Notes: generated by a model not told the origin, from the sequence alone. A stretch of 57,252 nucleotides of DNA from Bacteroidaceae bacterium (GCA_045661085.1 JAZRFA010000099.1:1-57252); one strand, 5' to 3'. Shown: positions 4,890 to 34,163, counted from the stretch's first letter. Program-made: numbers and translations.

Positions 4890-5756
4890 ATGAAATCCAT
4901 AGAACATCTCCTCACCCAAGTCGTGCGTGAGCTCACTACCCCCGAGCCTGCTAATGCGCCCCTCTGCCATCATGCCGATGGCCACCCCTTGCCCTCGCTC
5001 GCAACCCTAGCCGAGGTCGTTGACCTCTGCCGTGCCATCCTCTTCCCCGGTTACTTCGGTCACTCCGGCATCAGCAGCCACACCATAGCCTATCACACGG
5101 GAGTCAACGTCGAGAACCTCTACCACAAGCTCGTCGGTCAGGTGAAGGCCGGACTCTGCTTTGCCGATAAGAGCGAGTGCTCCCGGGGCGAAGCCGAGCG
5201 CATCGTCAGCCAGTTCGTCAGCCGTCTGCCCCAGCTGCGCCGCCTCCTTGCCACCGATGTGGTGGCTGCCTACGAGGGCGACCCTGCCGCCACCAGCTAT
5301 GGCGAGGTCATCAGCTGCTACCCGGCCATACGCGCCATCACGGGCTACCGCATAGCCCACGAGCTGCATCTCTTGGGCGTACCCCTCATCCCCCGCATCA
5401 TCACCGAGATGGCCCATAGCGAGACGGGCATCGACATACACCCTGCCGCCACCATCGGCAGCCACTTCACCATCGACCATGGCACAGGTGTCGTCATTGG
5501 TGCCACCAGTATCCTCGGCAACCACGTAAAGCTCTACCAGGGTGTCACCCTCGGTGCCAAGAGCTTCCCTCTCGACGAGCAGGGCAACCCTATCAAGGGT
5601 ATCGACCGCCATCCCATCCTCGGCGACAATGTCATCGTGTACAGCAACAGCACCATCCTTGGGCGCATCACCATCGGCCACGATGCTGTCATCGGTGGCA
5701 ACGTGTGGGTTACCGAAGATGTTGCCCCTGGAGCCAAGGTACTACAACGCCGCTGA
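4890..5756 (+). CDS. cysE: serine O-acetyltransferase
   Basis: 288 aa. N-terminal SATase helical domain plus left-handed hexapeptide repeats (GTGVVIGATSILGNHVKLYQGVTLG...ILGDNVIVYSNSTILGRITIGHDAVIGGNVWV). Confidence 0.85.
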   Translation: MKSIEHLLTQVVRELTTPEPANAPLCHHADGHPLPSLATLAEVVDLCRAILFPGYFGHSGISSHTIAYHTGVNVENLYHKLVGQVKAGLCFADKSECSRGEAERIVSQFVSRLPQLRRLLATDVVAAYEGDPAATSYGEVISCYPAIRAITGYRIAHELHLLGVPLIPRIITEMAHSETGIDIHPAATIGSHFTIDHGTGVVIGATSILGNHVKLYQGVTLGAKSFPLDEQGNPIKGIDRHPILGDNVIVYSNSTILGRITIGHDAVIGGNVWVTEDVAPGAKVLQRR

Positions 5757-5883
5757 GGCCATTTCCGTGCTTCGCAATCGGATAGAAAAAACGAAGCTCT
5801 GCCGATGCCCCTATATATAATAGGTATATATGTATAGGTGCGACGTGTGCCCCTATGCCAATGTATTGTGCGTCAGGGGTTTC

Positions 5884-5917
5884 TTTGTGTGATGTAAAAA
5901 AATATAAAATATCTTTG
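5884..5917 (+). promoter_or_regulatory. candidate Bacteroidetes promoter (TTTG-N22-TAtcTTTG) upstream of giant gene 1
   Basis: TTTG at 5884-5887 and TATCTTTG at 5910-5917. The spacing is one nt longer than the usual 19-21. It would give a ~360-nt leader. Confidence 0.3.
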
Positions 5918-6139
5918 TCATACTAAAAAAAATCTCTAATTTTACTCCGACACTCCCTTCTTTACGCGAATCGGGTGGGTAAATTATTGTATTACAGCAA
6001 TTTGGCTGATGGTGCGCAGGGGATTGACTATGTCTGTTTCTTGTGGCATTTGTTGACAGTTATGCTATGCGTGCGTAGCAAAAAAGAGAAAGTGAAGAAT
6101 GGTGAAGAAAAAAATACACCTATATATAATATATAAACA

Positions 6140-6284
6140 AAAAATAGTATGAACCTTTAAAACGATTAAAACTACGAAACAGACAGTGAAGACAGACGAT
6201 CACAACACACGGAACAGCGATGCCTCATGAGGTGTCCGTTCGCAGCACAAGGAAAACTAATTTATTTATTTTAATATTTAAGTC
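6140..6284 (+). promoter_or_regulatory. conserved 5' leader of giant gene 1 (paralogous to 15975-16136)
   Basis: Shared blocks are TAGTAT, ACGAAACAGA, GACAGAC and ACACAGGAAACA. A small stem-loop (6219-6236) is centred ~58 nt before the ATG, followed by AAAACTAA...TTTATTTATT. Confidence 0.5.
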
Positions 6285-9200
6285 ATGAGAAAATTAACTT
6301 TATTTTTCACAACGTTATTCCTATCCGTAGGAATGGCGTGGGCGCAGACGGCAACGTTGGAGGTATCCACTAATGTGGAGAATCCAGAGTTCCTGTATGA
6401 GCTTAGGAATGCCAATAATGTATGGATGGCTTCAAATACTGCTCCTACTCAAAACAACATTGCGTCTTTCGCTTTCTTTGGCACTGACAATGCCAATTTT
6501 TATAAAATCTATAGCTTCGACAAAAAGCAGTGGGTGTCTTATGACAAGTCAAACGGCAGCGCTGACTGCAGAGATTTCGTAAAGTTTGCTGACTCACAAG
6601 ATGCCGCAAACGCATGGAAGATTACCGAAGTAACCCGTGATGGGAATGCTGTATACCAGATTCAGCCGCAAAATAATGACGGTTCGGTGTCTAATAGATA
6701 CATGAACTGGAATGGCGGCGTTGCTACTAATGGTTGGGCATATACCTATGACGACACCAAAACCGTTGGTCTTTGGAGCGACAACGCGTCTTCGGACAAA
6801 GGCTCTGCATGGATATTGAGCGAGAAAGTCGTATCTCTCTCAGATGCTGCCGAGTTTGTAAATGGCGACATTTACACATTCGAAACAACACGTGGTTGGA
6901 TGGGTGCAAAGGCTGATAACGACTATGTTGTTTCTACAGTATATGGTGGTAACAACATTCCTGCAGCTGATGTGAAGAGAACCAATCCCTACTTCCAGTG
7001 GACAGTGTATAAGTCGGATAACGACAAGTACTACCTCTACAACATCGGTAAGGGCCAGTTCATGGGCGTTGAGAGCAACAACAACACGGCTGTGCCTTTT
7101 GTTGCAACTCCTGCCGGATTGGGGTTGACCTTCAAAAAGTCAAGCAACACAAATTACCCCATCATGTTCTCAACAGACAACAAGGCTGTTGTGAACCACT
7201 CGGGCAATCATCAATATGGTCTTATCTCTTGGACCGATGGTTGGAATACCCTTAATGACGGTGGTAGCAACCACAAGGTTGTGAAGGTTGGTGTTCTCGA
7301 CGAGACTACTCTTTCTACAATAGTAGATCTTGTTGCTAATTATGAAGAAACTGCAATACTCAAAATGCCCGAGGCCGGTAAGTATTACCGCATCATGGCT
7401 GTTGAGGGTTGGAACGATGATGCACGCTATCTTGGTTCTAAGAACTCTACAGTAAATACCAGTCGTGCTGAATATGTTGCCAACGCTGATGCATACACCA
7501 TTTTCTATTTTGATGGCAACTATTTGAAGTCATACGCAACGGGCAACTATCTCGTGAGCAATAGCAACTTCCTTGGTTACAATGGCGTTCAGGCTACGGG
7601 CTCTAAGATTGGTTTCAAAGAAGACTCAAACGTAGCAGGTGTTTATAACATCAGCTTTAACGACGGTGGCCGTTGGTTGTATGTCCACCAGAACAACTAC
7701 ACCGATGCTGGTAGTAGCGCAGAAAATAAGAATGGTTACCGCTTCAACATCGAGGAGGTAACACAGCTTCCTGTAGCTCAAGGTGGTAACACAGTTTACT
7801 ATACCCTTACTGATGCTAAAGCTAATGTTAAGGCCGGCGAGACACTTACATTGTTTGTCGACACCGACGAGACAATAGAACTCCCAATTGGTGTAATCCT
7901 TGACAAGAACGGCCATACAGCCGATAACGTAACAGTTGCAACTCCTGTTGCCAAGGTTGGTGAGGCTGAGTACGCTTCTCTCGCTGCAGCAATTAAGGCT
8001 GCTTCAGCTGGTGCAACAATCACTTTTGTTGACAATATCAAAGAGAGCGTTACACTCAGCAAGAACGTAACCATCGACGGTGCAGGCAAGACTTACACCG
8101 GTACAATGTCTGCAAACAATGCTTTGACAGTTACTGTGCAGAATGTGCACTTTGTCAATGGTGGTTTTGCAAAGAATAATAGCGGTACAAGCGGCACTTA
8201 TACCATCAAGGATTGTACATTCGATGGCGAGGGTAAATATGCTTATCCTGTTTTGGCAAGTAATATTGGAACTCTCAATGTAGAGAACTGTACTGTCAAG
8301 GACTACCAGTATGGTTTCCTTTACGTTAAAAAACAATCAACAAAAGTTTCTGTGAAGAGCGTAACAGTTGAAAACTGTCCTAACTATGCCGTTTACTTCG
8401 CTTCAGGTGTAACTACTGCTACATTTGAGAATTTGACGGTGAAGAACTCTGGTAGTGGTTTCGTTATCAATAACGCTGCAAACAGAAGCCTCACCATCAA
8501 GAATTGCAAGATGGAGAATGTCACTACTGCCATCAACCACTTTAAAGGTACATCTGCCATCACAGCCAATGTTCAGGGTCAGAATAACTTTGGCGCAGCT
8601 GTGTTGAGCCAGTATGCCAAGTGTGTTCTTGCCGAAGATGCTACTTTGGCTGCTACAACAGCAGGCTTGAATGTTACTACTAACGTCGAGGGCAAAGAGG
8701 TGGTTTACCAGGGTGGTACATACTCAGTTGCAGTAAAGAGAGACCCCGCAGGTTCAGTCGCTTATCGTGCAGACGTTACCGACAAGGAGGACCGCGAGGG
8801 TATCGCTATCCTCTTGAAGGATCCTTATGCAAAGAAGTCTCTTGTAGTAAAGGTATACAATGGTGAGACATTGATGTTCACATGTACCCGTCGCGACATC
8901 GACGATGAGGGCAAGGTGATGTTCCCTGTAACTGCTAATACTACAGCCAACATCGTTCTCTCGGGTAAGGAATCAGGTTCTTGGATCAATGAAATTCACG
9001 TAGCTCCTACAGAACTCAATGTTCCCAACAGAGTTGAGATCTGGGCTGACGAAGTATTGGTTCAGAACTACACTCACGAGAGCGGTACCATTCTTGGTTC
9101 TAACCTCGAGAAGTACCTCGCTTTGGCATGCGTGAAGAAGTTCGACGCTAAGATTGGCAACGCAGGTTACGAAACATTGGCTGCTGCTATCGAGGATGCA

Positions 9201-12200
9201 CAGGCTGGTGAGGAAATCGTTCTCCTCCGCGACATCACAGCTTCTGATATCATCACAATCAACAAGGCAATCACTCTCGACGGTAACGGCAAGAAGTTGA
9301 CATCAACTGCTACAGGTTCAGAAGCTCGCGCCATCAACGTGAGCGGTGCTAAGGGTGTTACTATCAAGAACCTTACTATCGATGCTAAGGGTCAGCGTGC
9401 AATCAACGTTATCCAGAACGCTACAAACGTAACAATCGATGGCGTTACTGCTACTGCAGCTAACTACACTGTTAACGTTGCAGGTTCTGCTGCTAATGCA
9501 GTTGTTGCAATCAACAACTCTACATTGAACGGTCTCTGCACAGTTAACGTTTCTGCTGCAGGTGCACAGGTGACTGTTGATAACAGTACAGTAAACTGTA
9601 ACGACAACAACACAACTACAGGTGAGGCTTATGCAGCTCTCAGCTTGAATAAGGAGGCCGTAGGTGGTTCAATCGTTGCTACAAACTCTACTATCAACGT
9701 TACCGATGGTTCTGACTCTATGAAGGGTAGAAACGGTGCCGAGAATGGTACAGTAACTATCAACGGTTCTGCCGAGGGCGTTGCTGTAATGGTTGCAGCG
9801 ATCACATACGCTGGTTCTGATAACTATCACGCTTTCGCAACTCTTAAAGCTGCTGTTGAGTTTGCACAGGCAGGCCAGACAGTTACTCTTCTCCGCAATG
9901 CTACAGGCGCAGGCGTTGTAATTGATAAGGATATCACTATCGACTTCAATGAAAAGACCTACACTGCAAACGCAGGCGTTGGTTCAGCAGGTACACAGAC
10001 ACTTGCTCTCCAGATCCTCAAGGAGAACAACGTAACCTTGATGAACGGTACATTGACTTCAGAGGGTGAGAACATCAAGATGCTCATCAACAACTATGCA
10101 AACCTCACTGTTAACAACATGAAGCTTGTTGACGCTACAGACGCAATCCAGTATGTATTGTCAAACAACAGCGGTACAGTAAATATTGTTAACGGTTCTG
10201 TAATCAGCAGCGACGCTGTGGCATTGGATGCATGTAAGTATGCAAGCTACGCAGCTCCCACAGTAACTGTTGCCAAGGATGCTATTGTAAACGGTAACGT
10301 TGAGGTATCAGCTACTCTCAACATGAACGGTACATTGAACGGTAACATCGTTATCAACGGTGCCGAGGGTGTTGTAAACGGTGCCCAGGGCTTGAACGTA
10401 ACAGCAATGGACGATTACAAAGTAGCTTATGCCGACGGTGCTTACACTATCGTTAAGAAGCACTACGTAGCACAGGTTGGCGAGGCTAAGTACGAGACAT
10501 TCGCTGCTGCTGTTGCTGCTGCTCCTGCAGGTTCAACCATCACTTTGATTGACGATGCTACTGAGGCTGCTACTGTTGTATTGACCAAGAACCTCACCAT
10601 CGATGGTGACGGCAAAACATTCACCGGTGCAATAGAGTTCAAGAAGACCAACGGTTCATTCACAGTGAAGAATGTGAAGTTCAACGGTGCAGGTGACCGT
10701 GTATACGCCCTCAAGTCACAGTCAAGTACAACCAACCTCACAGTTGAGAATTGTGAAGCAACTGACTACACCTATGGTTTCCTCTATGCTAATAGCGCAA
10801 TAGCAAATGTAACTGTTACGGATGTAACTGTTAAGGATGTAAACTATGGTGTGCACTCTGCACGTGGAACAAATGTTACACTCAACAACTTTGTGGCAGA
10901 GAATGTAGAGTATGGCGTAATGCTTCAGAACTATAGCGGACGTAACGTTGTTTTGAACAACTGTTCATTCACCGGTAGCGAGAATCCTCTCTACATCTGG
11001 GAGCGTAACCAGACCTACAAGATCACCTTCAACTTCAAGGGTGTCAACGAGATGGGCAAGGACGACTTCTGCACCAGCGGCTATGCTGTTGTCAATGCCG
11101 ATGCAGTTGTGGGTACAAAGGTTTGCGGTACTCTTGCCGAGGCTGTTGAGGCTGCCGAGGCAGGCGATGCAGTAACTCTCCTCCGCAACGTAGAGCTCGA
11201 TGCGCTCCTTACAATTGACAAGTCTATCACTCTCGACTTGGGTGAGTATAACATCACTCGCGATGCTCGTACTGCACTCTATGTAGAAGGTGACGACGTT
11301 GAGGTTACTATCAATGGTAAAGGCACTGTAAGCGGTAAGCAGGCTCTCTATGTAGGTGGTGGTCTTGTAAAGGTTTACGGCGGTAACTTCCACGGTCTTA
11401 CCGAGGCTGTGTATGTACAGCACTCTGGTAAAGCTGAGATTTACGGCGGTAAATTCTCATCAGATAATGTTACCTATGTACTCAACGAGTACGACTCTAC
11501 TCGCGAGACTTCTGATATCACTGTTTACGGTGGTACATTCGTAGGCTTCAACCCCGCTGACAATGCTGCCGAGGGCCAGGGTACCAACTTTGTTGCTGCA
11601 GGCTTGATGGCTGTTGACAACGGCGACGGCACATTTGGCATAGCAAAGGCCAATATCAAGATGGGCGACAGCTACTACGCTACTCTTGCCGAGGCTATCG
11701 CAGCCATCGGTTCAGGTGACGTGGTTATCGAGCTGTTGGCCGACGCTACACTCGACTACGGTGCACGTGAGGCTTACGGTACTGCCGAGACAACTTCTGT
11801 AACCATCAACGGTAACGGCAATACTCTTACCTTGAACCAGACCAACAGCGACTGGTCATCATTCGGCCTGGCTGCTGCTGCAGGTAAGGTGGCGTTCAAC
11901 GACATGACTATCGAAAAGACTGGCCATGGCGACACCAGCGGTGCTTGGAACACCCACGCCATCATCTTCAGCTCACCCGTTGAAATGACCGACGTTACTA
12001 TTAATAATGGTATAGCTGTTCAGGGTGGTGCTACATTGAACAATGTAAAAATCAACGAGGCTAACGGCTACTATGGCTTGTGGGTTAACGGCAATGGCCA
12101 GGCTGTGACTGTTAACGGCGGTGCTATCAACGCTACCAACGGCGGTCGCGGTATCAAGATTGCCGACCAGTACATCGATGCTCCTGCTCAGGTTACATTG

Positions 12201-15335: not shown

Positions 15336-15356
15336 ACAAAGATTTGCATTAACCCT

Positions 15357-15384
15357 CCCACGGGTGGTGAAAGCCACTCGTGGG
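15357..15384 (+). promoter_or_regulatory. stem-loop 22 nt after the giant gene 1 stop, without a U-tract
   Basis: CCCACGgGTGG-tgaaag-CCACtCGTGGG forms 10 bp with two single-nt bulges. It is followed by AATAATAAAAAC, not a T-run. It could be a processing or stabilising structure, or a partial terminator. Confidence 0.45.
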
Positions 15385-15406
15385 AATAATAAAAACAAGA
15401 AAGACT

Positions 15407-15583: not shown

Positions 15584-15622
15584 AACAAGCAAGTAGAGTT
15601 TACAGCTCTATGATCTATAGTA

Positions 15623-28100: not shown

Positions 28101-28955
28101 GTTCGCGAATATCCTGTTGAGGCTTTCATTGCTAAGGCTGCTCTTGCTGAGGGTATGACTGTTCTTGCTGACGCAATTCCTGCTGAAACTGCCGCACTCG
28201 TTGAGTACGACACATTCTGGCAGGTTGAGCAGAAGAACCTTGCCGAGCTTACTATCGAGGATGCTTGCGAGGAGTACATCAACAAGATTGAGAAGAATGT
28301 TGAAGTGTTGACTTACGAGCGTTACTTCAATGACACTGAGTGGCAGACTATCGTATTGCCGTTCGATGTTCCTGTTGCAAACTTGATGGATCAGTTCGAG
28401 GTAGCTTACATCTACAACGCTTCTTATAAGGGCAAGCAGGCTACTATCGACTATGTAGTTATTGAGGATTCTGAATTTGTTCTTGCTGCTAACTATCCTT
28501 ACATGATTCGTGCTAAGGAGACAGGCTGGAACAACATCGTTGTTGAGAATGCCAAGTTGATGCCTACTGAGGTTGAGATACTTGACTGTTCTTCTATCTT
28601 CGAGAAGTTCAGCTTCATCGGTAGCTATGCTACAGTTGATACAGATGAACTCGATGCTAAGTACGGTTACTTCAACTTGACTTCAGGTACTTGGAGCAAG
28701 AAGGGTACTGTTAACCCCTTCCGCTTCTACATGCAGATTGAGTTGCGTAACGGTAAGGACTTCGAGTATCCTGCTTCTAATGAGTCAATCCGTATGCGTC
28801 GCGTAGACGAGAACGGCAATGCCGACACTACTGGCATCGACGGTGTTGACGCTGAGAATGCAGGTGACTTCATCTTCGACCTCCATGGACGTCGCGTCCT
28901 CGAGCCTCTGAAGGGTGGTCTCTACATCATCAACGGTAAGAAGGTTATCTTCTAA
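16137..28955 (+). CDS. giant secreted modular beta-helix/GLUG-like repeat protein with T9SS C-terminal sorting domain (4272 aa)
   Basis: Uninterrupted 12819-nt ORF with signal peptide MKLKQFIFALAVMLSGFAISVNAQ. About eleven cap-plus-beta-helix modules are present (AKIGTTTYGTLAEAVKAAAAGDEIVLLKN, AKVGDKKYATLEEAFKAATSGCTIEIVSD and others). Two GLUG-like regions follow, then a pre-CTD domain homologous to gene 1. The C-terminus ...DFIFDLHGRRVLEPLKGGLYIINGKKVIF is a T9SS CTD. Confidence 0.92.
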   Translation: MKLKQFIFALAVMLSGFAISVNAQEAKIGTTTYGTLAEAVKAAAAGDEIVLLKNVTLTGGYADDPTAGLRIEKALTINGNKKTIDCGTFKDGIRVYINSNSKADVEFNNVTIKNDNPYGRCIDMRTGKIALEVKGGAKLIAHGVNSQPLTVGGSAATYRVRVSNATIDAGETGYGIISFVRVTNNIEFSSSVKISGLAALYLKEGANNTTVTMGNGTYTGTNLNSAASGMFGTVVIEGKNNTITVNHEKAVIKAVAGNDANQAVQAAFLLKEGATGNKIQVTNANAQVLTEGAQAQWATVATDATNNVLINKGQTVNFAVEYNGYQFMDANEVFSKFVPQEKEATIKLLSDVALDETWTVAAGQNITLDLNGKTASMAYTKDATANHAMISNKGNLTIVDSSNGGKLSYTYAGANLGTTYAANTITSEPGSVLTVKNGIIENLTYDHATIAYAIDGRTNGGAGDVTVNIEGGVITSKRQAVRIFANSTTKTGTLNISNGDFTGRVIVQNASANANKAVLNITGGTFNANEYKSDVLYLGGSNSATIDINASVSGGTFNGEITQTNVKGFISGGTFSQPVAEAFCAKGYAPIELGNGTYGVQEGQIVALIGSAKYFSLADALAAAKDGETISLQWRDDYTPIAMNGSLYGKSVTITGTATVDWSKGFLFVGRGGVGNAKLTFDNANLTSASNQATYGIHVSGRENETADKYDGTLVIKESTIELDYLINKGAMTLDKSSLTVKNGFDLNGRPASETENGEDANATLALANNSKLVVNNHNGMGIGREGKGELTVDASSTFEHTQDFIVRAKGTMDVKGTLVSNGKKLTNNGEVKFTATKLTAATIEGTGTTRFYNDVNFYGANSITTGINGTPFHLVVNEGANLLISRFTLGYDRNITVNGTIADASTFNPAGQTPSLKFNSTSGVSVGGTGTGNITAKNAYVEFGNSSWKSAQGTYDWNFENCYVSATSFTNAAGPGADAAKWDVTFNKSVLAAKNYIKNGKNVTYNFTNNSRGTTGSLRIDGVLNIDATSSVVTTSQQNNVQGAVDEHGGINGTVNVAGNLTIGSNAKTQLEVLGGTVNVNEGATLALGNNTMTLDAASAMQSAGNISGAITAADGANVAITGGTYTQDVSNWCADGFMTQQNADGSFGIAKAVAKVGDKKYATLEEAFKAATSGCTIEIVSDVTVDYNWDARNTGGKFTVPVTINGNDKTIKFTASVNDNNYQAPFRFEADATVKNLIVDMSEVTDSRFRAISSKGNLTVDGCKFIGKDETLNCRAIIFGEGAGANVGNLAIAITNSEFINWKRGITDNENAQDVKTVTITGNKLTDAGVGVSAKEKVTFTGNTVEGAYVDIKSYTTGNKLAVTATGNTLAANTDAAYNVIDAGGVVNAEGFKVVAKGDNFNGYTGADGIWGETWGNAKESFVIKVLDANGDVMGTTSLNNIGGIINGNVNVSWNLKFNAAANTDEYWTMEWTTAPSISNMPAKVELWVDGTRVSGGDVVLNGPDDLNKIVAAVTDADGKIISCHTSVANAAATNATNIALLRNTTEEIILPAGVKLNANGFTAANVKTAVAVIGTQKFASLQAAVNAVKDGGTITLVDNVTGNVTLTEKVGLHYTLDGAGKQFKGSISVNSLSDTNDNRRITIKDIKFVDTADAKVDFISSVNTNHYPRLTIEGCTFTGSGNDGDVAVRLKSSHSVVIKDCTGTGLHSFLQNTSGWNLTIENVKVTDSKGAFALGTVQGVTVKGSTIDVATYGIRIDADTYNNNAVIESNEVTAFIPVVVRKVNAESNVTFTGENIFTAENTDEKWMVIGTTEYEAGVALPAEVATGNVVVALNNTNLTYDGIHGAGLAGKGTAEAPYLINNVAELEIFRNSVNAGSTKYNKDGLCVALNADIDMAGNDWSVNIGDDCANTFDGIFDGTNHTIKNLKSVETAQKADGYICTGLFGAIGGNAVVKNFTIENVTINTGDFTGNNVAAVVGFAYNAKGSIENVKVTGDININAKNAVGVGAILGYDYYSPELVVKNCEVKGNSGSAIVGLSYVGGAVGYASNKIQLLSNSVENVSITANNAAAGGVAGIMLAGGSAADNAVKDVVLASNHANWKNAVGVVAGTITSGKVTIANTTIENVNTDAVAGAVHADKPTTPVAKVEARIGDAYYTTLDAALAADGDEVELLVPVTVAKDETRVLDLKGKTVSHSKACAASYEMIKNLGNLTIKNGTLSFTDTSAGDRSFGWGSYTINNYGTLVVEEGATIQHLGAQEFATHMIAAIQQAKGSTTINGGVISTPNYRSVRINGGALAINGGEFDGQVWLQPNQGDVTIAVDGGTFGPNGRDGSSIFMTNVGENNTVTSASITGGTFTTKIGCTDPAALAGIITGGKFTEAAMTATNGALIGDGFTFDKNAENGYYAVVAGLDGDGTEAAPYMITSVKELELFRESVNKGETKYNAPGVWVALGADIDLANAEWTVGIGDGHNYSFDGNFDGKNHTIKNLKIKPYADADNYLCGGLFGYTYGGVTIKNLVIENAAVNFTGAETGKDYHCVGILVGFANNNGGKLNVDNVTVKGDIKVYAPQTFGVGAIVGYSYRAMGSITNTKVLANAGSYIKGERFVGGITGYSDANAIIENCTVENLAISGANGVAGIAGLALDGNKITNCTVTNVTVSGNKNVAYIVGELGSGDGGNVLVNNCNAPQPWVGGSYGTGESFVATIGTKYYTSIAKAIEVAKETDVITLIIDITATEPIAIPTGKKVTLDLNGKTITGTDNTTKSYGLININPGAELTINDTAGNGAITLTATNNRGWDAYSSVISNQRGKLTVNGGTIEHLGGTDMAYAIDNLTNGKGTYAETIINGGTMKSTYRAVRQFLNGTEAQNILTVNGGTIEGANKSIWMQNANANANPGDLTVAETAEIKGDVYVSGAGAANFPVEISVANAALKDGATVLPSNVHESFAIANNNGVWGITSSVASANGVGYASFLEAIDAAKSGETVTLLADVTLDTKTLATQDDGYAVLVNVKGKAITLDLNGKNVTVDAAAADLASAKSKMLLGVFSADLGGHLTLTDNSDAKNGAVTVNLNDAAVYSVFVSESAQKDKSNSGKITVDGGNYTTVGKVSNAMFFTDANEVITVNGGNFHCDQVSNTANYPWMFNTLGNNELHVIVNGGTFNIDINHQHRPFEVLVPETLAVRANDNGTWTVVEAEAYITEKLGSTVNEAGEWGHNVGYATLAEAIAAVNELGNKVSMAKDVELTETVVVPADKTVVLDLNGKTVSMNDASGAAAALLKNNGNLTIMDGTEAKAGKLSFKTTTPSAANAYASNTISNYGVITIESGNVENLSVGGGACYALDNYAGSTATINGGKLTAEKTAVRIFNWTNGEEAKATINMNGGEIYSKNGYGINVNSGNAPFVALNIAGGTITTDYADYKLAVYVVNKNSAENLTINVTGGTFNGIFALNGVTAQTMKQGAVAVSGGTFEGVTCYDDPAYGFVSGGTFKSAVDAKAVATGFICKDNGDGTFGVIVDPKHGMVAQIIRNDYYAENQYFATINDAVQAAQSGETVTLIADVETSAAGYATITDNYAVIVAVKEKNITLDLNGKSVTVTPTAEELANAEGKMLMSVFGMDTNGKLTLTGNGSVKVNANGANVYSLVAAYGEGSAVVIENGNYEADAVNANGSLIYAQQAECIAVMGGTFNLGNLGTGANGSPWIFNTKGQNYTGVKVVGGTYPTDINHQFWANEVLVPEAYALEDNGDGTWTVVPAVAYTNEKATSRGASWRHVGYASLEDAIAATGKYNCQGNTVTMIKDITLEPITVANGVKVAIDLNGKTISGTDKGTASYGLITNKGDLTIDGTGAITLEATQDRGWGAYSSVISNQVGGKLTVNGGTIQHLGGTSMAYAIDNLTNGKDTYAETIINGGEIKSTYRPIRMFLNGVEAQNILTVNAGTIEGTGGNKAAIWMQTAGDVAHSGTLYVGADAVIKNNVYLDADNLKNVREYPVEAFIAKAALAEGMTVLADAIPAETAALVEYDTFWQVEQKNLAELTIEDACEEYINKIEKNVEVLTYERYFNDTEWQTIVLPFDVPVANLMDQFEVAYIYNASYKGKQATIDYVVIEDSEFVLAANYPYMIRAKETGWNNIVVENAKLMPTEVEILDCSSIFEKFSFIGSYATVDTDELDAKYGYFNLTSGTWSKKGTVNPFRFYMQIELRNGKDFEYPASNESIRMRRVDENGNADTTGIDGVDAENAGDFIFDLHGRRVLEPLKGGLYIINGKKVIF
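21678..22560 (+). repeat. GLUG-like region 1 inside giant gene 2 (approximate)
   Basis: GKGTAEAPYLINNVAELEIFRNSVNAG...TGLFGAIGG...VGGAVGYASN...AGGVAGIML shows the periodic G-hydrophobic-x-G motifs that I associate with the GLUG motif family. Confidence 0.6.
23374..24250 (+). repeat. GLUG-like region 2, paralogous to 21678-22560 (approximate)
   Basis: GDGTEAAPYMITSVKELELFRESVNKG...GGLFGYTYGG...VGGITGYSD...VAGIAGLAL is colinear with region 1. Confidence 0.6.
24251..25030 (+). repeat. intragenic cassette, paralogous to 27453-28200 (approximate)
   Basis: VTLDLNGKTITGTDNTTKSYGLIN...NNRGWDAYSSVISNQRGKLTVNGGTIEHLGGTDMAYAIDNLTNGKGTYAETIINGG compares with AIDLNGKTISGTDKGTASYGLIT...QDRGWGAYSSVISNQVGGKLTVNGGTIQHLGGTSMAYAIDNLTNGKDTYAETIINGG. 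Confidence 0.8.
25031..25790 (+). repeat. cassette shared with giant gene 1 (13110-13866)
   Basis: See 13110-13866. Here it reads GYASFLEAIDAAKSGETVTLLADVTLDTKTLATQDDGYA...NHQHRPFEV. Confidence 0.85.
26719..27452 (+). repeat. diverged third copy of the 13110/25031 cassette
   Basis: YFATINDAVQAAQSGETVTLIADVETSAAGYATITDNYA...KMLMSVFGMDTNGKLTLTGNG...NHQFWANEV keeps the same order of motifs at lower identity. Confidence 0.65.
27453..28200 (+). repeat. intragenic cassette, paralogous to 24251-25030
   Basis: See 24251-25030. Confidence 0.8.
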
Positions 28956-29018
28956 ACCAGACAACCTAAGACCCTAATTGGCTCAGCGATGATTTATCGC
29001 TGAACCAATCCAACAGAA

Positions 29019-29052
29019 GAGGGGTGCGGTAATTACCGCACCCCTCGCTTTT
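29019..29052 (+). terminator. intrinsic terminator of giant gene 2
   Basis: GAGGGGTGCGGT-aatt-ACCGCACCCCTC forms a perfect 12-bp stem followed by GCTTTT. A second hairpin, TTGGcTCAGCGAT...ATCGCTGAaCCAA, lies at 28978-29008. Confidence 0.85.
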
Positions 29053-29083
29053 GGTAAGCATCCGATAAAATACATCTTGTAGT

Positions 29084-29135
29084 AGTTGTAGTTGTGTTAT
29101 ACTTTTGCCCCGCAATAGTGCACACAACTACAACT
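29084..29135. repeat. 14-bp perfect inverted repeat with 24-nt spacer at the right edge of island A
   Basis: AGTTGTAGTTGTGT (29084-29097) pairs with ACACAACTACAACT (29122-29135). Confidence 0.6.
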
Positions 29136-29258
29136 GTTATAAATATGAATTAAGAAGAATTACCGTGGTGTTTCCTTTCGCACACAATCCTGTTCGATGG
29201 TGAAATTACTATTACAAATTATTGCCGGGAATATTTCTTCTATGTTCGGTTTGCACTA

Positions 29259-29360
29259 ATTCTCGGCCGCATCACCATCGGGCACGATGCCGTCATCGGT
29301 GGCAACGTGTGGGTCACCGAGGACGTACCTCCTGGAACCAAGGTACTGCAACGGCGATAA
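29259..29360 (+). pseudogene. displaced 3' end of a cysE allele (last 33 codons plus stop), lacking the rest of the gene
   Basis: It aligns codon for codon with 5655-5756. I count 86/102 identical nt and 31/33 identical aa (ILGRITIGHDAVIGGNVWVTEDVPPGTKVLQRR*). Nearly all differences are synonymous third-position changes. Homology stops at the stop codon and at the ILGR codons. Confidence 0.85.
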
Positions 29361-29408
29361 GGGTGAGTCTGGAAAGCGTTGGACTCTTTGTATCGTAGAA
29401 ACCCCAAA

Positions 29409-29437
29409 GAAGAGAAGCCAAGACTAGGCTTCTCTTC
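29409..29437. terminator. terminator-like hairpin, homologous to 34050-34085
   Basis: GAAGAGAAGCC-aagacta-GGCTTCTCTTC shares the AAGAGAAGC core with the hairpin beside the intact tRNA. It sits at the same distance from the tRNA-derived sequence. Confidence 0.55.
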
Positions 29438-29447
29438 CTGTTGTGGT

Positions 29448-29485
29448 ATCTAGGGCCTGGATCTAGGACCTCCAGATTATGAGTC
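29448..29485 (-). pseudogene. displaced tRNA 3'-half fragment (anticodon stem-loop through T-arm)
   Basis: 35/38 nt are identical to 34096-34133 of the intact tRNA. Identity ends inside the anticodon stem-loop. The three mismatches destroy the TTC of the T-loop, and the acceptor 3' strand is degraded. Confidence 0.8.
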
Positions 29486-29580
29486 GTGCCAAGTATGCTA
29501 GAGGTTTGATGCGACATATTGCGCTTATTATTGCACATATCCAATCTTTTATATACCTTTACGCATTCAAACGCGAAATA

Positions 29581-32500
29581 ATGCCTAGAACTATGAAACG
29601 CATCATCTCCTTATGTCTCGCAACAGCATTGTGCATCGTTTCCATAGCACAGAATGTAACAACATCCAGCAGCTCCATGACTACGAGTCCTTGGGCAGTA
29701 AGTGTACCCTACAACATTGCCGATGAGGGCACGAAGTATGAATTCAAGTTCGGCATGGGTGGCTGGAGCTGGGACTTCTTTGCCCTCCAGCAACGCAACC
29801 ACTGCGGCAAGGAGAACCTCGACATCGCTCGTGTGGGGTTTAATGGCCGCTTCGACAAGGCCTACGACGCCCTCACCGCTGAGCAGAAGAACACTATGGA
29901 TACCGAGCTCCGCAACATTGTGCAGACGGGTGTGAAGTCCATCTTCCTCCTGTGCGGTATCGGTAACCTGGGCGACCAGCTGGGCGACCTCACCAGTGCT
30001 CCCGTATGGAACGAGACGACACGCACCAACTATGTGAACGATATCGTGCGCGCCGTGGAGTATGTAGAAGGCAAGGGCTACAAGGTGTTTGCCGTGGCTC
30101 CCTTCAATGAACCCGACTTCGAGAAGACCTATACGGGTACTGCTACCAACTTCAATGCCGTGGCTGCCATCATGCAGACAAAGCCCCAGTTGGCAGGCAG
30201 GGTGTTCGGCCCCAGCACACTCAACAGCTCTGAGGCTCCCAAGTGGTACGCCACCGTAAAGAATAACGTCAACTATGCCAATACCCACCAGTTGGCAGGT
30301 GGTAAGTTCTCCGACTATACGGGATTCTGGGCACAGGCCTATAAGGATGGCAAGTACCCCGTGGCCGACGAGATGCACAATGTGATGGAGGCGATGGTGT
30401 GTATCAACTATGGTGGCGTGGCCGGCACCTGGTGGGGATGGGACGGTATCACCCGAGGAGAGTATATCCGCATGATCAAGGGCGGCACGCAGCTCGCCTA
30501 TAAGGAGCGCCCCAATGAGTGGATGACAGCCTCGGTAAACAAATATACGGGCGAGAACGGGCGCGTAGAGGCCTTCATCGGTACCTCGGAGCGTCAGGCC
30601 AAGGCCTCGGCATTCACCTTCGTCTCTAAGGACCGACTGGCCTACTATGATGGCCACGGCCCTGCCTATGACCACACCGAGGAGGTGCCGGGCGACCCCA
30701 CAGGAGCCTATCAGAAGGGGCAGACCAATGCCGAGCGCCTCATCCAGATCCATACCGGTGAGGATGTGCCTGTGGAGCCCATTAACGGACAATATAAGAT
30801 CGTCAACAAGGCCACTGGCAAGGTGCTCTCGCTCAATGGAGGCAGGGCCGTGCGCGGTAACGTATACCAATGGGCCGATGGCGGACAGGACAACCAGGCG
30901 TGGGACGTATACCCCATCGACAAGTACATGAAGAATGCCGACGGAGCAAGTATCGTCGCCGACTACAGCTACTCGGTCATCCGTAACGCCAACACCTCGG
31001 GCGTTCCTCTCTACCTTGACGCACAGCAGTGGGCCATGGATAGCGGGGCGAATGTGACGGTACAGTCTGATGGGGATGCCTTGAGCACGAACCCCAATGT
31101 GTGGCAGCGCTGGCACTTGCGCTATATGGGCGACGGGTACTACCAGATCATCAACCACTTCACGGGACTGCACGTAGGCGTTATTGGGGGTAACACCGCC
31201 AATGGTGCCAATGTGGTGGAGCTGAACAATAACGGAGGCGACAACCTGTTGTGGAAGTTTATCCCTGCCGACAGCAAGGTGGAGACCACCGCTCCTGAGG
31301 CTCCCACGGGGCTGACGACAACAGCACAGTCGGGTGCCGTGAAACTGACTTGGACCGCCAACGGCGAAACCGACCTCTACGGCTACATGGTGTACCGCTA
31401 TAACGACGAGGTTGGTATATGGGAGTGTATAGGCCGTAAGGTCAAGGGTACCACATTCATCGATAACACCTGCCGTAAGGGACAGCCCCTGCGCTACCGC
31501 ATCAAGGCACTCGACGCGGCATATAACTTGAGTGAGGCATCGGCTGAGGCGACAGGACAGACTGCTGCCGACAATGCCCGTATCGCCCAATGGACCGGCC
31601 TATCGAACAGGGACAATGGCAGCAACAAGCTCCATGCCGTATTGAATGGAGTGACGCTGACAACCAGTGGCAGCCGCCCCGTCTTCTCATTTGATGGAGA
31701 GGATGACTACATGAAGCTCCCCTATCACGTGGGCGACATGGAGCAGATGACCTTCACCGCATGGGTCAAGGGGGGCAGCACTACCGCTTGGCAGCGCATC
31801 TTCGACTTCGGCAATGGCGAGGATGAGTATCTCTTCCTCACGCCTACCAATGGCAGCACGATGCGGTTTGAGATAAAGAAAGATGGTGTCGTACAGGGGC
31901 TCAACGCCACCACGGCACTCGGCACCAGCTCATGGAAGCATATCGCTGTGACCATCGGCACCAGCGGTGTGAGCATCTACATCGATGGAGAGCTCAACGC
32001 CTCCACCGCAGACATCACCCTGCGCCCGTCAGATGTGGCTCCCGCAATGAGCTACCTGGGTCGTTCGCAGTTTGATGCCGACCCCGCCTTCAAGGGAACG
32101 ATGAGCGACGTGCGCATCTACAACTATGCCCTCACCGCGGAGGAAGTGAAGTCTGTATCCGAGGAGACCGTGGTCGCCGAAGGTGTTGACATCACAGCAG
32201 AGCGCATTCCAGGCGTAGCTGATGACTTGAATAACTGGACCTACACGGGCTCGTGGGCCACATGGACAGACGAGACGGAGAATGCCGGCACACTGACCTC
32301 GCCCTATGTGCGCACCACAGCTGCAGGGGTAAGCACGCTGAGCAAGACCCTTACCTATCTGCCCGAGGGCCAGTACAAGCTGGAGGCCAATGTATATGCC
32401 TACTACAACAGCTATTCTGCGAGAAAGAATCAGCATCTGTACCTCAACGACCAGACACTGACCATCAACTCTGCAAGAAACCGCACAGCTACCCTGCGCA

Positions 32501-33834
32501 GCATCATCGGTACCGTGGCGGCTGACGGCAAGATGGAGTTTGGCCTCAAGGCCACCTCTTCGACCAGTGCCACCAATATGGCTATGGACAATGTGAAGCT
32601 GGTATACCAGGGTACAGTGGACGAATATATCGAGGGCATCAACGCTATGGGCAACGATGTGTATGCTGAGGCTTTGACGCTCGTGGACAAACCGATGAAT
32701 GCCACCGCAAAGGCTGCATTGCAGGCTGTGGTTGAGGCCATGACAGTGGCCAAGGATGCCTATACCGCCCACGTCAAGGGTGGCACAGCCTCTTCGGCGG
32801 ATGTCGAGGCGTGGATAAGCGCATTGGAGGGCATACCTGCCGCTGTGAGAAGTGCCAAGGTGTCCATTGAGGCCTACAAGCCACTGGCAGAGCAGGTTGC
32901 GGCTGCACATACCAAAGCTGCTACCTACCCGCAGGAGAATGGCAATGAGGCATTTGCCGAGGAGCTGGGTGCTGTGGAGGCCAAGCTTGTAGCAGGCGAA
33001 TATGCCGACAGCGACATCGCAGCCGTTATCCTTGAGGTCAAGGGAATCACTAACCGCTACCTGATGGCCGATGCCATGGTAGAGGCGAGCAGAAAGAACC
33101 CCTTCGATGTGACCGCCCTGGTGGTCGAGCAGGCCTCCTTTGAGGACAATGCCTGCACCTCGTGGATCGTCTCTCCCGCTCCGACATCGATGGCCTATGG
33201 CATGGTCGAGTTCTCCAACACCACCTTCGACATGTACCAGGTGCTTTATGGTATGCCTGCCGGTGTATATCAGCTGCAGGCACAGGCCTTCTACCGCTAT
33301 GGTGGAGCAACAGCCCACTACTCGGCCTATACCAACGGAAGCATCAAGCGCAATGTCAAGCTCTACATCAGCCATGTCTCGGCTGGAACCAACACTGCCG
33401 ATGTGATGGCCATCTCTGACGATCCGTCGGAGGTCCATGAGACGGGCGAGTGGTCGACCCGACTGTATGAGGGTCATCCCGTACCCGATGACATGGTGGC
33501 AGCTGGCGAAGCTTTCGATACCCACCGCAAATATATGCCTAAGGAGGGATACAACAGTGTAGAGGCCAAGGTTACTGAGATTGGCGACCTCACCATCGGT
33601 GCCAAGAAGGAGGCCAAGAGGTCGAGCGACTGGAGCGTTATCGGAGGTTTCAGCCTCCTCTACCTGGGCGATGGAGAAGAGGGGGACGACATGGATGTGG
33701 AAGCGATCACTTCCAGTGAGGCCACCGTGGTAGCTATCTACAACGTCAGCGGCATACGCATCACCACCATGCAGAAGGGTCTCAATATCCTCCATATGAG
33801 CGATGGCACGACGGTCAAGGTGCTGGTGAAATAG
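29581..33834 (+). CDS. multidomain secreted protein: GH clan-A-like TIM barrel + ricin-B lectin + FN3 + LamG/concanavalin-like + two jelly-roll-like domains + T9SS CTD
   Basis: Signal peptide MKRIISLCLATALCIVSIAQN. ATG 29581 or 29593 is the likely start, since the track start 29479 lies in the tRNA fragment. Domain evidence: FAVAPFNEPDFE (NEP acid/base-like motif); QYKIVNKATGKVLSLNG...YQWADGGQDNQAWDV (QxW ricin repeats); PEAPTGLTTTAQSGAVKLTWTANGETDLYGYMVYRY (FN3); FDGEDDYMKLPY...TFTAWVKGG...WKHIAVTI...SIYIDGEL...VRIYNYALTAEEV (LamG). The C-terminus VVAIYNVSGIRITTMQKGLNILHMSDGTTVKVLVK is a T9SS CTD. Confidence 0.85.
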   Translation: MPRTMKRIISLCLATALCIVSIAQNVTTSSSSMTTSPWAVSVPYNIADEGTKYEFKFGMGGWSWDFFALQQRNHCGKENLDIARVGFNGRFDKAYDALTAEQKNTMDTELRNIVQTGVKSIFLLCGIGNLGDQLGDLTSAPVWNETTRTNYVNDIVRAVEYVEGKGYKVFAVAPFNEPDFEKTYTGTATNFNAVAAIMQTKPQLAGRVFGPSTLNSSEAPKWYATVKNNVNYANTHQLAGGKFSDYTGFWAQAYKDGKYPVADEMHNVMEAMVCINYGGVAGTWWGWDGITRGEYIRMIKGGTQLAYKERPNEWMTASVNKYTGENGRVEAFIGTSERQAKASAFTFVSKDRLAYYDGHGPAYDHTEEVPGDPTGAYQKGQTNAERLIQIHTGEDVPVEPINGQYKIVNKATGKVLSLNGGRAVRGNVYQWADGGQDNQAWDVYPIDKYMKNADGASIVADYSYSVIRNANTSGVPLYLDAQQWAMDSGANVTVQSDGDALSTNPNVWQRWHLRYMGDGYYQIINHFTGLHVGVIGGNTANGANVVELNNNGGDNLLWKFIPADSKVETTAPEAPTGLTTTAQSGAVKLTWTANGETDLYGYMVYRYNDEVGIWECIGRKVKGTTFIDNTCRKGQPLRYRIKALDAAYNLSEASAEATGQTAADNARIAQWTGLSNRDNGSNKLHAVLNGVTLTTSGSRPVFSFDGEDDYMKLPYHVGDMEQMTFTAWVKGGSTTAWQRIFDFGNGEDEYLFLTPTNGSTMRFEIKKDGVVQGLNATTALGTSSWKHIAVTIGTSGVSIYIDGELNASTADITLRPSDVAPAMSYLGRSQFDADPAFKGTMSDVRIYNYALTAEEVKSVSEETVVAEGVDITAERIPGVADDLNNWTYTGSWATWTDETENAGTLTSPYVRTTAAGVSTLSKTLTYLPEGQYKLEANVYAYYNSYSARKNQHLYLNDQTLTINSARNRTATLRSIIGTVAADGKMEFGLKATSSTSATNMAMDNVKLVYQGTVDEYIEGINAMGNDVYAEALTLVDKPMNATAKAALQAVVEAMTVAKDAYTAHVKGGTASSADVEAWISALEGIPAAVRSAKVSIEAYKPLAEQVAAAHTKAATYPQENGNEAFAEELGAVEAKLVAGEYADSDIAAVILEVKGITNRYLMADAMVEASRKNPFDVTALVVEQASFEDNACTSWIVSPAPTSMAYGMVEFSNTTFDMYQVLYGMPAGVYQLQAQAFYRYGGATAHYSAYTNGSIKRNVKLYISHVSAGTNTADVMAISDDPSEVHETGEWSTRLYEGHPVPDDMVAAGEAFDTHRKYMPKEGYNSVEAKVTEIGDLTIGAKKEAKRSSDWSVIGGFSLLYLGDGEEGDDMDVEAITSSEATVVAIYNVSGIRITTMQKGLNILHMSDGTTVKVLVK

Positions 33835-33882
33835 ACTACTAATAAGCTGAAGTCCATTGTTTTAGAAACAAAATAAAGTTTT

Positions 33883-33965
33883 GTCATCCTGAACGAACGT
33901 GAAGGATCTCGCGCTGGAACTTCGCATGAGACGTTTGCGAGATCCTTCACTACGCTCAGGATGAC
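33883..33965. repeat. 83-bp palindromic element (GTCATCCTGAACGAACGTGAAGGATCTCGC ... GCGAGATCCTTCACTACGCTCAGGATGAC)
   Basis: ~29-bp inverted arms. It resembles the GTCATCCTGAGCG...GAAGGATC palindromic intergenic repeats that I recall as widespread in Bacteroidota. Confidence 0.7.
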
Positions 33966-34049
33966 AGAGACCTCTGGGTAAACTACTATGTTATTGCTAT
34001 GATGTTTGACAGAGAGAGGGGGGGAGTTGTAAGTGCAAATAAGCAAAAG

Positions 34050-34085
34050 AAAGAAGAGAGAAGCACATCTGCTTCTCTCTTCTTT
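34050..34085. terminator. bidirectional terminator hairpin (1451-aa gene / tRNA)
   Basis: AAAGAAGAGAGAAGC-acatct-GCTTCTCTCTTCTTT forms a perfect 15-bp stem with T-runs on both strands. Confidence 0.8.
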
Positions 34086-34089
34086 GTCG

Positions 34090-34163
34090 TGGGCCATCTA
34101 GGGCTTGAACCTAGGACCTCCAGATTATGAGTCTGTTGCTCTAACCAACTGAGCTAAAAGCCC
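34090..34163 (-). tRNA. tRNA with CAT anticodon (Met, or Ile2 if lysidine-modified)
   Basis: The reverse complement is GGGCTTTTAGCTCAGTTGGTTAGAGCAACAGACTCATAATCTGGAGGTCCTAGGTTCAAGCCCTAGATGGCCCA. It has a D-arm GCTC/GAGC, an anticodon loop CTCATAA, a T-arm CTAGG-TTCAAGC-CCTAG and a 7-bp acceptor stem with one U-U mismatch. No CCA is encoded. Confidence 0.85.

Follow-up and report, generated by a model that had tools for sequence, protein, structure and literature searches.

Replacement islands are surface-antigen regions, such as O-antigen or capsule loci, that are swapped between strains via flanking homology. The locus described here, which lies between cysE and a tRNA(CAT) gene in a Bacteroidaceae bacterium, resembles such islands in being bounded by conserved genes (cysE at one end and tRNA-HAD-ribF at the other), in its lineage-specific content and in its lower-GC import. 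It differs in that it carries arrays of single giant secreted-protein genes, each accompanied by a small partner peptide gene, rather than biosynthetic operons.

Islands and prophages that insert into tRNA genes provide a second point of comparison. A displaced tDNA fragment marks the border of such an island, the principle that underlies Islander (PMC4383910), and the anticodon loop is one sublocation at which these elements cross over (Williams 2002, as cited in PMC4383910). Like these elements, the locus has an orphan tRNA 3′ half that runs from the anticodon stem in direct orientation with the intact gene, an exact-base occupied/empty polymorphism in related strains and, in viral contigs, a tyrosine integrase by attP. 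In contrast to them, the element in the window appears to be gone save for 14-24 nt and the interval is now filled by a putative resident gene, while the attP of the phage family concerned mimics a whole tRNA with a covarying 12-bp hairpin inserted in its D-arm.

A third parallel comes from homology-facilitated illegitimate recombination, a concept found in one study (PMC3240628) and used to explain orphan gene arrays in another (PMC5361080). In orphan immunity and Rhs/CDI 3′-end arrays, as here, a conserved upstream gene provides the homologous anchor, new cargo arrives with donor-type sequence on the anchor side, the old gene end is pushed downstream and the locus needs no recombinase gene (PMC3240628, PMC5361080). 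Here, however, it is a housekeeping gene, cysE, that has had its 3′ end displaced, and not a toxin or immunity module, and the cargo consists of 23.5 kb of giant surface-protein genes.

We analysed a 57-kb window (the whole stretch of 57,252 nucleotides, which is our sole view of the source organism) and compared it with sequences that are all metagenome contigs. The original prediction had described two integrase-less islands, A and B, inserted back to back between cysE and the tRNA. Our comparisons instead suggest that the repeats at this locus are probably ordinary scars of gene swapping and of a lost prophage, not the borders of two such mobile islands, and that the orphan cysE end and the orphan tRNA half were likely left by two different processes. 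The features are collected in Table 1.

Table 1. Features of the cysE-tRNA(CAT) interval and its flanks; positions are counted from the first nucleotide of the window.
Feature	Coordinates	Strand	Basis or remarks
Intact cysE, serine acetyltransferase, mosaic gene	4890..5756	+	Hexapep match
Island A, strain-specific	5757..29258	+	Absent from L091; lower GC
A1, 3016 aa	6285-15335		Island A
Small partner peptide gene	15407-15583		Island A
A2, 4272 aa	16137-28955		Island A; followed by terminators and an orphaned promoter-like box
cysE′, displaced last 34 codons + 12 nt of resident cysE allele	29259..29372	+	L091 comparison
Old cysE-tRNA spacer with terminator hairpin hp′ (stem 29409-29437)	29373..29439	.	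-22 kcal/mol, z -5.6
tRNA′, orphan decayed 3′ half of tRNA(CAT), anticodon stem to 3′ end	29440..29485	-	
Phage/element arm remnant by old crossover, gtgccaagtatgct + ~10 nt	29486..29503	.	12/14 match
Gene B, 1413 aa, LamG + ricin-type lectin domains	29593..33834	+	Pfam matches
Terminator hairpin beside intact tRNA	34050..34085	.	-25 kcal/mol, z -5
Intact tRNA, anticodon CAT	34089..34163	-	ARAGORN
Third strain-specific block, between tRNA promoter region and HAD	34250..38740	.	Pfam matches

The repeats themselves are real. In an alignment within the window, cysE positions 5655-5756 recur at 29259-29360 with 86 of 102 nucleotides identical, the translations of the two 3′ ends share 31 of 33 residues and the copy closes with a stop codon of its own, all as originally described. 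A 38-mer at 29448-29485 matches 34096-34133 at 35 positions, giving the pairing of an intact tDNA with a direct-orientation displaced 3′ fragment that Islander-type searches look for. Shuffled sequences produced no match to this 38-mer and none, in 100 shuffles, to a 53-nt core of the cysE repeat (which matches at 3 mismatches). The tRNA copy is longer than the predicted 38 nt, with lower-identity homology carrying it on to the tRNA 3′ end at 29440 (about 40/46 identical in a by-eye count on the alignment). The hairpin near the orphan cysE end and the terminator on the tRNA side are both stable when folded (z about -5).

Related contigs show what this 227-bp block once was. The intact tRNA is identical at 75 of 75 positions in L082, L104 and L106, and the 3′ arm of its neighbouring hairpin together with the tRNA is 100% identical in L104, L105 and L001. 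A hairpin of the hp′ type also adjoins the tRNA 3′ end in L104, L082 and L100. In L104, from a related species, cysE is followed by 174 nt with a hairpin, the tRNA and HAD, with no gene in between, which is the empty site that had been anticipated. The block is what remains of an older haplotype that had cysE next to the tRNA, as its earlier description as an orphaned older cysE/hairpin/tRNA junction had proposed.

Between this empty state and the window lies a range of occupied ones, the interval holding from zero to six or more genes depending on lineage. It contains a 1341-aa gene and a 61-aa gene in L082; an 858-aa gene, a 58-aa gene, an orthologue of gene B and more in L097; and six called genes (four large and two small, B last) in the 10 kb before the tRNA in L106, where cysE lies outside that stretch. 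Gene content differs in each lineage sampled; a small peptide gene like that of island A is common to the arrays at the homologous locus in L082, L097 and L106. Within island A, which has a GC content of 44-49% compared to 50-56% in the core, A1 and A2 are paralogous and the A2 C-terminus has a top database homologue with 57% identity. The giant genes had been termed type IX secretion (T9SS) cargo, a label that finds no backing in Pfam or NCBIfam, where neither A1, A2 nor B has a C-terminal-domain match. A third block beyond the tRNA encodes HU-HIG, DUF3987/AbiEi_4, two small ORFs and a RelE-like protein and is absent from L082, L104 and L106, where HAD begins ~120-140 nt after the tRNA. On balance, we favor the view that a hypervariable array of genes for very large secreted/surface proteins fills the interval from cysE to the convergent tRNA(CAT)-HAD-ribF-YfhO block.

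The orphan tRNA half is accounted for by a phage family that, judging from contig comparisons, appears to cross over at the anticodon region of tRNA(CAT). L104 and L105 share 99.86% identity as far as the base directly following 'gagtc' in the anticodon stem and then diverge, with L105 occupied and L104 empty at this tRNA base; the L001 boundary is identical, and the same junction is present in L001 and L100-L102 in other genomic contexts. Integrated copies are known from the attL side, the occupied contigs all ending within 2 kb of attL. The family's attP is a tRNA-like sequence with a pseudo 5′ part and a hairpin in the D-arm; this GCAA-capped 12-bp hairpin covaries (double changes in 4/12 pairs; 96.7% of cells paired), and a promoter-like box lies upstream of attP. 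In the phage arm, direct repeats of 7-10 nt occur in pairs with a spacing of 11 nt, and the members of a pair vary in concert from one lineage to another. In the viral contigs L108 and L109, the tRNA-like site has a tyrosine integrase and an anti-repressor as neighbors. L108 encodes a 407-aa integrase (Arm-DNA-bind_5, SAM_5, Phage_integrase) 1.2 kb from the site and the anti-repressor on the site's other side, and L109, a 35.9-kb IMG/VR contig, has the same tRNA-like site and anti-repressor.

The window fragment has the same junction, and the 14 nucleotides that follow tRNA′ are identical at 12 positions to the same position in L001, L105, L100, L101 and L102, and the similarity of tRNA′ to other sequences reaches 29499, where it matches the phage arm and not the tRNA. 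The segment formed by tRNA′ and 29486-29499 has two properties expected of an attL, namely a polymorphism at a fixed base and a tyrosine integrase by attP in the free form. The prediction that this orphan half marks an anticodon-region integrase site was sound, since a tyrosine-integrase element family really uses it: tRNA′ is the host side of an old attL, a true integrase scar that was not made by B. The scar's likely source is an element that encoded a tyrosine integrase, either a temperate phage or an integrative element, and just 14-24 nt of it would remain. Six of the 46 positions of tRNA′ are changed, three of them in the acceptor stem, and it is a decayed pseudogene because universal T-loop positions are altered (TCCAGGC, compared to TTCAAGC in the tRNA). 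L091, whose homology to the window picks up again at 29504, lacks hp′ and tRNA′ within a 131-nt indel; we read this as a deletion, though it may alternatively reflect an insertion in the window lineage.

Gene B is a different matter from the scar beside it. A large ORF is present as predicted, but the 29479 start that made it 1451 aa long is the orphan anticodon read as ATG on the complementary strand. As called, the gene has 1413 aa and starts at 29593 with a signal peptide (MKRIISL). B is 98% identical in L091, has an orthologue with 63% amino acid identity downstream of cysE in L097 and has an 82% (nucleotide) orthologue in L106 directly before hairpin-tRNA-HAD, with no tRNA fragment. Its GC content of 55-57% is core-like, and its divergence from the L106 orthologue is similar to that of neighboring core genes such as YfhO (80%). 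B had been cast as the element that split the tRNA, a role at odds with the conserved B-hairpin-tRNA-HAD order, with the core-like GC and with the bases beside the orphan half, which come from the phage arm and not from B. An island of the Islander type would also have an integrase within the interval and be absent where the tRNA is unsplit, but the interval holds just gene B, and L106 has B without the fragment. These comparisons indicate that gene B is a resident chromosomal neighbor of the tRNA.

Could B instead have been integrase-distal cargo of the ancient, since decayed phage-type element that split the tRNA, with the B-tRNA adjacency in L106 stemming from the same event? B occupies precisely the stretch that separates the orphan half and its arm remnant from the intact tRNA, tRNA′ is old by its six changes and B-family genes are found at another locus in L107. 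We nevertheless regard this origin as unlikely: neither an orphan tRNA half nor an arm lies upstream of the L082 and L097 arrays, the viral form has the integrase and a 236-aa gene adjoining the tRNA-like 3′ half and no lectin gene there, and B has diverged from its L106 orthologue much as core YfhO has. If B is resident, a later deletion or replacement would have brought it beside the tRNA scar. We infer the order of events on this side, for which at least two scenarios fit equally: B came from outside into an occupied empty site, or a locus that already bore B acquired the scar by import.

Island A has a different history. It is missing in L091, where gene B comes directly after cysE and which thus represents the single-island variant that had been predicted; the pre-insertion comparison rests on this one close haplotype (3.5 kb, 97% identical). 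Compared with L091, cysE has a mismatch rate of 1.8% as far as 5480, of 9.8% over 5481-5654 and of 13.7% over 5655-5756. The second of these rates exceeds the first (Fisher 1.7e-7) and is statistically indistinguishable from the third (p = 0.33), and the change-point falls at 5498 (support 5440-5501; delta lnL 14.9 against 5655). From this pattern, cysE from 4890 to ~5497 would be the resident allele and ~5498-5756 a foreign one, presumably a third allele because this tract is equally far from L091 and L087. The displaced end, on the other hand, is identical to the L091 cysE end at 98 of 102 positions and over the following 12 nt; it is the resident allele, in line with the earlier proposal that the orphan end was the original and had diverged from its replacement. 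The early change-point could also be imitated by a recombination patch of separate origin, either in L091 or in the window.

Donor-type sequence runs from 5498 to the cysE stop, 9.8-13.7% divergent, and continues into island A. Similarity to cysE ends at the right join, 29258/29259, where donor-side comparison is limited to the A2 homologue at 57%. The divergence from ~5498 fits a homologous crossover inside cysE combined with a non-homologous join at 29258/29259, and homology-facilitated illegitimate recombination is accordingly the pattern that we consider the likelier route of entry for island A. Under this mechanism, the island would have arrived as a single foreign piece from the homologous locus of a diverged strain, comprising the last ~260 nt of the donor cysE, A1, the small peptide gene, A2 and the first part of the following cassette. 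Its left end would have recombined by homology within cysE near 5498 and its right end would have been joined without homology 34 codons ahead of the resident stop, such that cysE remained intact while the resident end was displaced 23.5 kb downstream.

One alternative is that A entered site-specifically at 5655 and that the 5498-5654 divergence is a separate recombination patch in the window or L091. A second small mismatch cluster at 5145-5206 shows that mosaic patches do occur in cysE. This alternative nonetheless seems rather improbable: it needs two events where one suffices, divergence is alike on both sides of 5655, and the putative site comes with no integrase domain in the 30 long ORFs scanned and does not recur in 60 loci compared.

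The original model of two integrative islands with surrogate gene ends, one (A) targeted to the 3′ end of cysE and the other (B) to the anticodon loop of the tRNA, their integrases lost or acting in trans, fares worse still and is in our judgment very unlikely. Both gene ends are directly repeated in the orientation that it expects, with the displaced original at the far border of island A as for elements that target gene 3′ ends; empty and single-island haplotypes exist; and the tRNA boundary falls at one of the classical sublocations (PMC4383910, and Williams 2002 as cited there). On the A side, however, such an element would leave the resident sequence unaltered up to the repeat, yet the foreign tract begins ~157 nt before it, and of 60 other loci that match the 3′ end of cysE, none has a second, orphan cysE end. 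On the B side, the model conflicts with the fragment-free B-hairpin-tRNA-HAD order of L106, with the GC content of B and with the origin of the bases adjoining tRNA′ in a different element. The reported lack of integrase and transposase genes was borne out by a domain scan of 30 long ORFs over the whole window, which returned none and counts further against the model; it poses little of a puzzle, as neither A nor B reads as an integrative island.

Misassembly of the repeats or of the L091 'single-island' contig, a concern with metagenome contigs, is extremely improbable given that L091 already differs in haplotype before the repeat begins, that the L104/L105/L001 boundary recurs in independent samples and that the cysE copies are just 85% identical and so offer an assembler no long exact repeat to collapse.

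A more speculative idea, to which we assign little credence, is that the tRNA-like attP is transcribed as a tRNA mimic and serves some function besides recombination, or that the cysE-tRNA interval is a dedicated, phage-aided landing pad for giant-protein cassettes. The mimic's role may, for example, lie in lysogeny control or in interference with tRNA(CAT) maturation.

These observations suggest that gene-end duplications around apparent islands need not imply site-specific integration: one scar at this locus would trace to one-sided homologous recombination and the other to a prophage since lost. An annotation pipeline that matches tRNAs to their fragments would miscall gene B as a genomic island. 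The phage family identified here and the precise site at which it attaches to tRNA(CAT) offer a possible means of typing strains or of integrating DNA. More broadly, the locus shows that genes for very large surface proteins turn over rapidly in Bacteroidaceae of the gut or rumen.

The end of cysE and part of the tRNA(CAT) downstream of it occur twice in the window. The last 102 nt of cysE are repeated at 29259-29360 (86/102 bases identical; 31/33 residues the same in translation) in a copy, cysE', that has its own stop codon. The 53-nt core of this repeat contains 3 mismatches between the copies and found no match in 100 shuffles. Similarly, a 38-mer at 29448-29485 is identical at 35 of 38 positions to 34096-34133 within the intact tRNA, again with no match in shuffles, and weaker homology extends as far as the tRNA 3' end at 29440. 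Changes in this orphan tRNA half (tRNA') fall on universal T-loop positions, which marks it as a decayed pseudogene fragment. The hairpin between cysE' and tRNA' and the hairpin beside the intact tRNA both form stable folds. The repeated cysE end, hairpin and tRNA half described in the original prediction are thus real; the same prediction took them to border two integrase-less islands, A (5757-29258) and B, inserted between cysE and the tRNA. A scan of 30 long ORFs across the window identified no integrase or transposase domain.

Coordinates and content of features in the window and in contigs from related bacteria, metagenomes or viruses (L-handles)
Feature	Sequence	Position	Strand	Remark
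cysE	window	4890-5756	+	Hexapep match
tRNA, anticodon CAT	window	34089-34163	minus	ARAGORN, single tRNA found
HU-HIG, DUF3987/AbiEi_4, two small ORFs, RelE-like protein	window	~34250-38740		between tRNA promoter region and HAD
Mismatch rate to L091	window	up to 5480		1.8%
Mismatch rate to L091	window	5481-5654		9.8%
Mismatch rate to L091	window	5655-5756		13.7%
cysE-tRNA interval	L104			no genes: 174 nt with hairpin, then tRNA, HAD
cysE-tRNA interval	L082			1341-aa gene, 61-aa gene
Downstream of cysE	L097/L098			858-aa gene, 58-aa gene, B orthologue (63% aa), more
10 kb fetched before tRNA	L106			six called genes (four large, two small); cysE outside fetched stretch
tRNA(CAT)-like interrupted site	L001	5866-5969
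tRNA(CAT)-like interrupted site	L105	2878-2981
tRNA(CAT)-like interrupted site	L100	39-142
tRNA(CAT)-like interrupted site	L101	1997-2100
tRNA(CAT)-like interrupted site	L102	7277-7380
tRNA(CAT)-like interrupted site	L108 (MT839845.1), viral contig	2860-2964		1.2 kb from 407-aa tyrosine integrase with arm-binding domain; anti-repressor gene on other side
tRNA(CAT)-like interrupted site	L109, 35.9-kb IMG/VR contig	~7352-7456
Small peptide gene	window	15407-15583		directly after A1; conserved 58-62 aa
Small peptide gene	L082	15178-15363		after large secreted-protein gene
Small peptide gene	L097	8672-8848		after large secreted-protein gene
Small peptide gene	L106	3192-3380 and 6362-6544		after large secreted-protein genes

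Relatives of the window's cysE (83-97% identity) are common, and their contigs share a conserved frame of dUTPase, TPR, DUF4292, M23, cysE, a variable interval, tRNA(CAT) on the minus strand, HAD, ribF, YfhO and glycosyltransferases. Content of the cysE-tRNA interval varies by lineage, which identifies the locus as a hotspot of large secreted-protein genes. The empty site that had been predicted is present in L104. In L106, the last gene is an orthologue of gene B (82% nt), followed directly by the hairpin, tRNA and HAD; B-hairpin-tRNA-HAD is a long-standing chromosomal arrangement. More distant species have no tRNA within 10 kb of cysE. The HU-HIG/DUF3987 block is missing in L082, L104 and L106, contains no recombinase gene and is a third strain-specific insertion. 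A PHROGs scan of the block was uninformative, yielding just one weak DNA-binding match and a RelE-like family without assigned function. Replacement of the tRNA promoter by this block is ruled out, as the promoter region can still be aligned.

A comparison with L091, a 3.5-kb contig from a close strain, bears on how island A arrived. Across window positions 2924-5758 L091 shows 97.3% identity; after cysE it goes directly to the region preceding B and the first part of B (98.4% identity), without island A, and so provides the anticipated single-island variant. Its cysE end matches cysE' at 98/102 positions and over the next 12 nt, versus only 88/102 for the window's functional end, so cysE' is the displaced resident end, as originally proposed. 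The rise in mismatches to L091 is best described by a single change-point at 5498 (support 5440-5501), with a change-point at 5655 poorer by 14.9 log-likelihood units. Had the crossover been site-specific and at the repeat, resident sequence should extend to 5654, but the mismatches rise before that boundary. The foreign cysE tract is as distant from L091 as from another comparison sequence, L087, and thus stems from a third allele. On this sequence comparison, one continuous foreign tract from inside cysE into island A appears as the signature of a left homologous crossover. That L091 instead derives from the window arrangement by loss of A between the cysE copies is ruled out by its ~10% divergence from the window just upstream of the repeat. 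cysE also differs from L091 at 8 positions clustered within 62 nt (5145-5206), ahead of the main foreign tract, perhaps through an independent small patch of recombination.

At the other border, cysE similarity breaks off sharply at 29258/29259, ~150 nt past an orphaned promoter-like box with nothing left to drive. A second cysE end occurs in 0 of 60 loci that match the gene's 3' end, which is thus not a reused attachment site. Among homologues sought as a possible donor or alternative carrier of island A, none exceeded 57% identity, the value of the best match, to the A2 C-terminus; the right join therefore remains inferred. The pattern fits homology-facilitated illegitimate recombination (PMC3240628), a model also invoked to account for the downstream displacement of orphan genes in T6SS and Rhs arrays (PMC5361080).

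The tRNA half has a different source. In L001, the closest reference genome contig, cysE is followed by the hairpin, the tRNA 3' half, 38 unrelated hairpin-forming bases and the tRNA D-arm and 5' end, and this interrupted structure recurs in L105 and, with other neighbours, in metagenome contigs L100-L102. Throughout the family, two bases in the 3' strand of the D-stem give way to an insert of ~32 nt, which forms a 12-bp hairpin with a GCAA cap, or GCA in viral copies. The hairpin covaries, with double changes in 4 pairs and 96.7% of cells paired, a level unreached by any shuffle. Over 2.9 kb, L105 and L104 share 99.86% identity, which ends precisely at the base that follows 'gagtc' in the anticodon stem; past it, L104 continues as a normal tRNA and HAD, whereas L105 runs through the hairpin and a pseudo 5' part into foreign DNA. 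The alignment presents the two as occupied and empty forms of a polymorphism at one fixed position. The arm adjoining the site has a pair of direct repeats of 7-10 nt at a spacing of 11 nt, and both copies co-vary between lineages, as those of arm-type integrase sites do. Given the site beside an integrase in L108, the occupied/empty polymorphism, the arm repeats and the hairpin covariation, the interrupted tRNA is most plausibly the attP of a temperate element that carries an integrase; once integrated, this site would become attL, in which the host 3' half is joined to the element arm.

Two alternatives fail. A deletion scar is ruled out by the hairpin covariation, the unrelated contexts and the integrase adjacency in viral contigs, and a functional intron-bearing tRNA by unpaired acceptor stems in L100, L101 and L108 and impaired D and anticodon stems. 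ARAGORN called no tRNA at the interrupted site in L001, L100-L102 or L105, and the Rfam tRNA model gave a borderline score of 29.5 bits, treating 35 nt as an insertion in the D-loop. In scans of viral contigs, stricter patterns were without match and a relaxed pattern retrieved L109; a plasmid search returned plain tRNA matches only, and a PHROGs scan of genes beside attL in L001 and L102 gave no match. Separately, four phage records ('uncultured phage cr…', human/pig faeces, ~98-104 kb; NC_055895.1, NC_055899.1, NC_055903.1, NC_055904.1) have an annotated tRNA-Met with 95.5% identity to the 3' half (44 nt) of the window tRNA(CAT). In L101, a 54-nt direct repeat (1739-1792 and 105-158, or 205-258 and 1839-1892 when numbered downward from 1996; 87% identical) brackets ~1.6 kb with a BACON/Lcl-domain gene, adjoining the element arm.

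Because tRNA' shares with the element arm both the junction and 12 of the 14 next bases, it is a genuine scar of integrase action, placed at the anticodon-region sublocation (PMC4383910). The element behind the scar is gone, and gene B is not that element. Homology to L091 resumes near 29503/29504; L091 (2838-2845) lacks exactly 131 nt of the window (29373-29503), which comprise the former spacer with its hairpin, the tRNA half and what remains of the arm, and the breakpoints show no obvious microhomology. The scar could have come to lie left of B through import of B-hairpin-tRNA into an occupied empty site or of a cysE-spacer-scar segment into a B-bearing locus, and either route would involve a non-homologous join near 29503/29504.

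The two-island interpretation thus survives in its ancestral junction, its empty and single-island variants and integrase action at the tRNA, but not in A and B as integrative islands. Against A stand the foreign tract from ~5498 and the cysE end unrepeated in 60 loci; against B, the B-hairpin-tRNA-HAD order conserved in L106, a core-like GC content (55-57%; island A, 44-49%) and an arm next to tRNA' that comes from another element. The missing integrases of A and B need no special explanation. While this kind of event is known, the locus and phage attachment site appear to be undescribed.

Protein content also departs from what was first described. Gene B encodes 1413 aa rather than 1451, its signal peptide and called protein both beginning at 29593; the extension in the longest ORF (29479-29592) begins at an ATG complementary to the CAT anticodon of the orphan tRNA. 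T9SS C-terminal-domain profiles matched none of A1, A2 (the two giant genes of island A) and B, leaving the proposed T9SS cargo without a profile match. By exact-sequence look-up, none of the cysE, M23 and B proteins encoded in the window is on record. A1 and A2 are paralogues with DNA stretches 77-85% identical (13144-13643 vs 25066-25568; 15217-15337 vs 28837-28957), many internal repeat units and a common C-terminal end (...DLHGRRVLEP.KGG.YI.NGKKVIF). A B orthologue, 81% identical, lies in an unrelated context at L107:1523-5731, between CN_hydrolase and AAA_21/RloB genes near a tRNA-Lys, so B-family genes also move between loci. The small peptide gene after A1 has the motif MKK.Y..PEM...RRG.WGNLW, RRG.WGNLW being its end, and its placement as in L082, L097 and L106 indicates that island A is the same kind of array as those at the homologous locus elsewhere.
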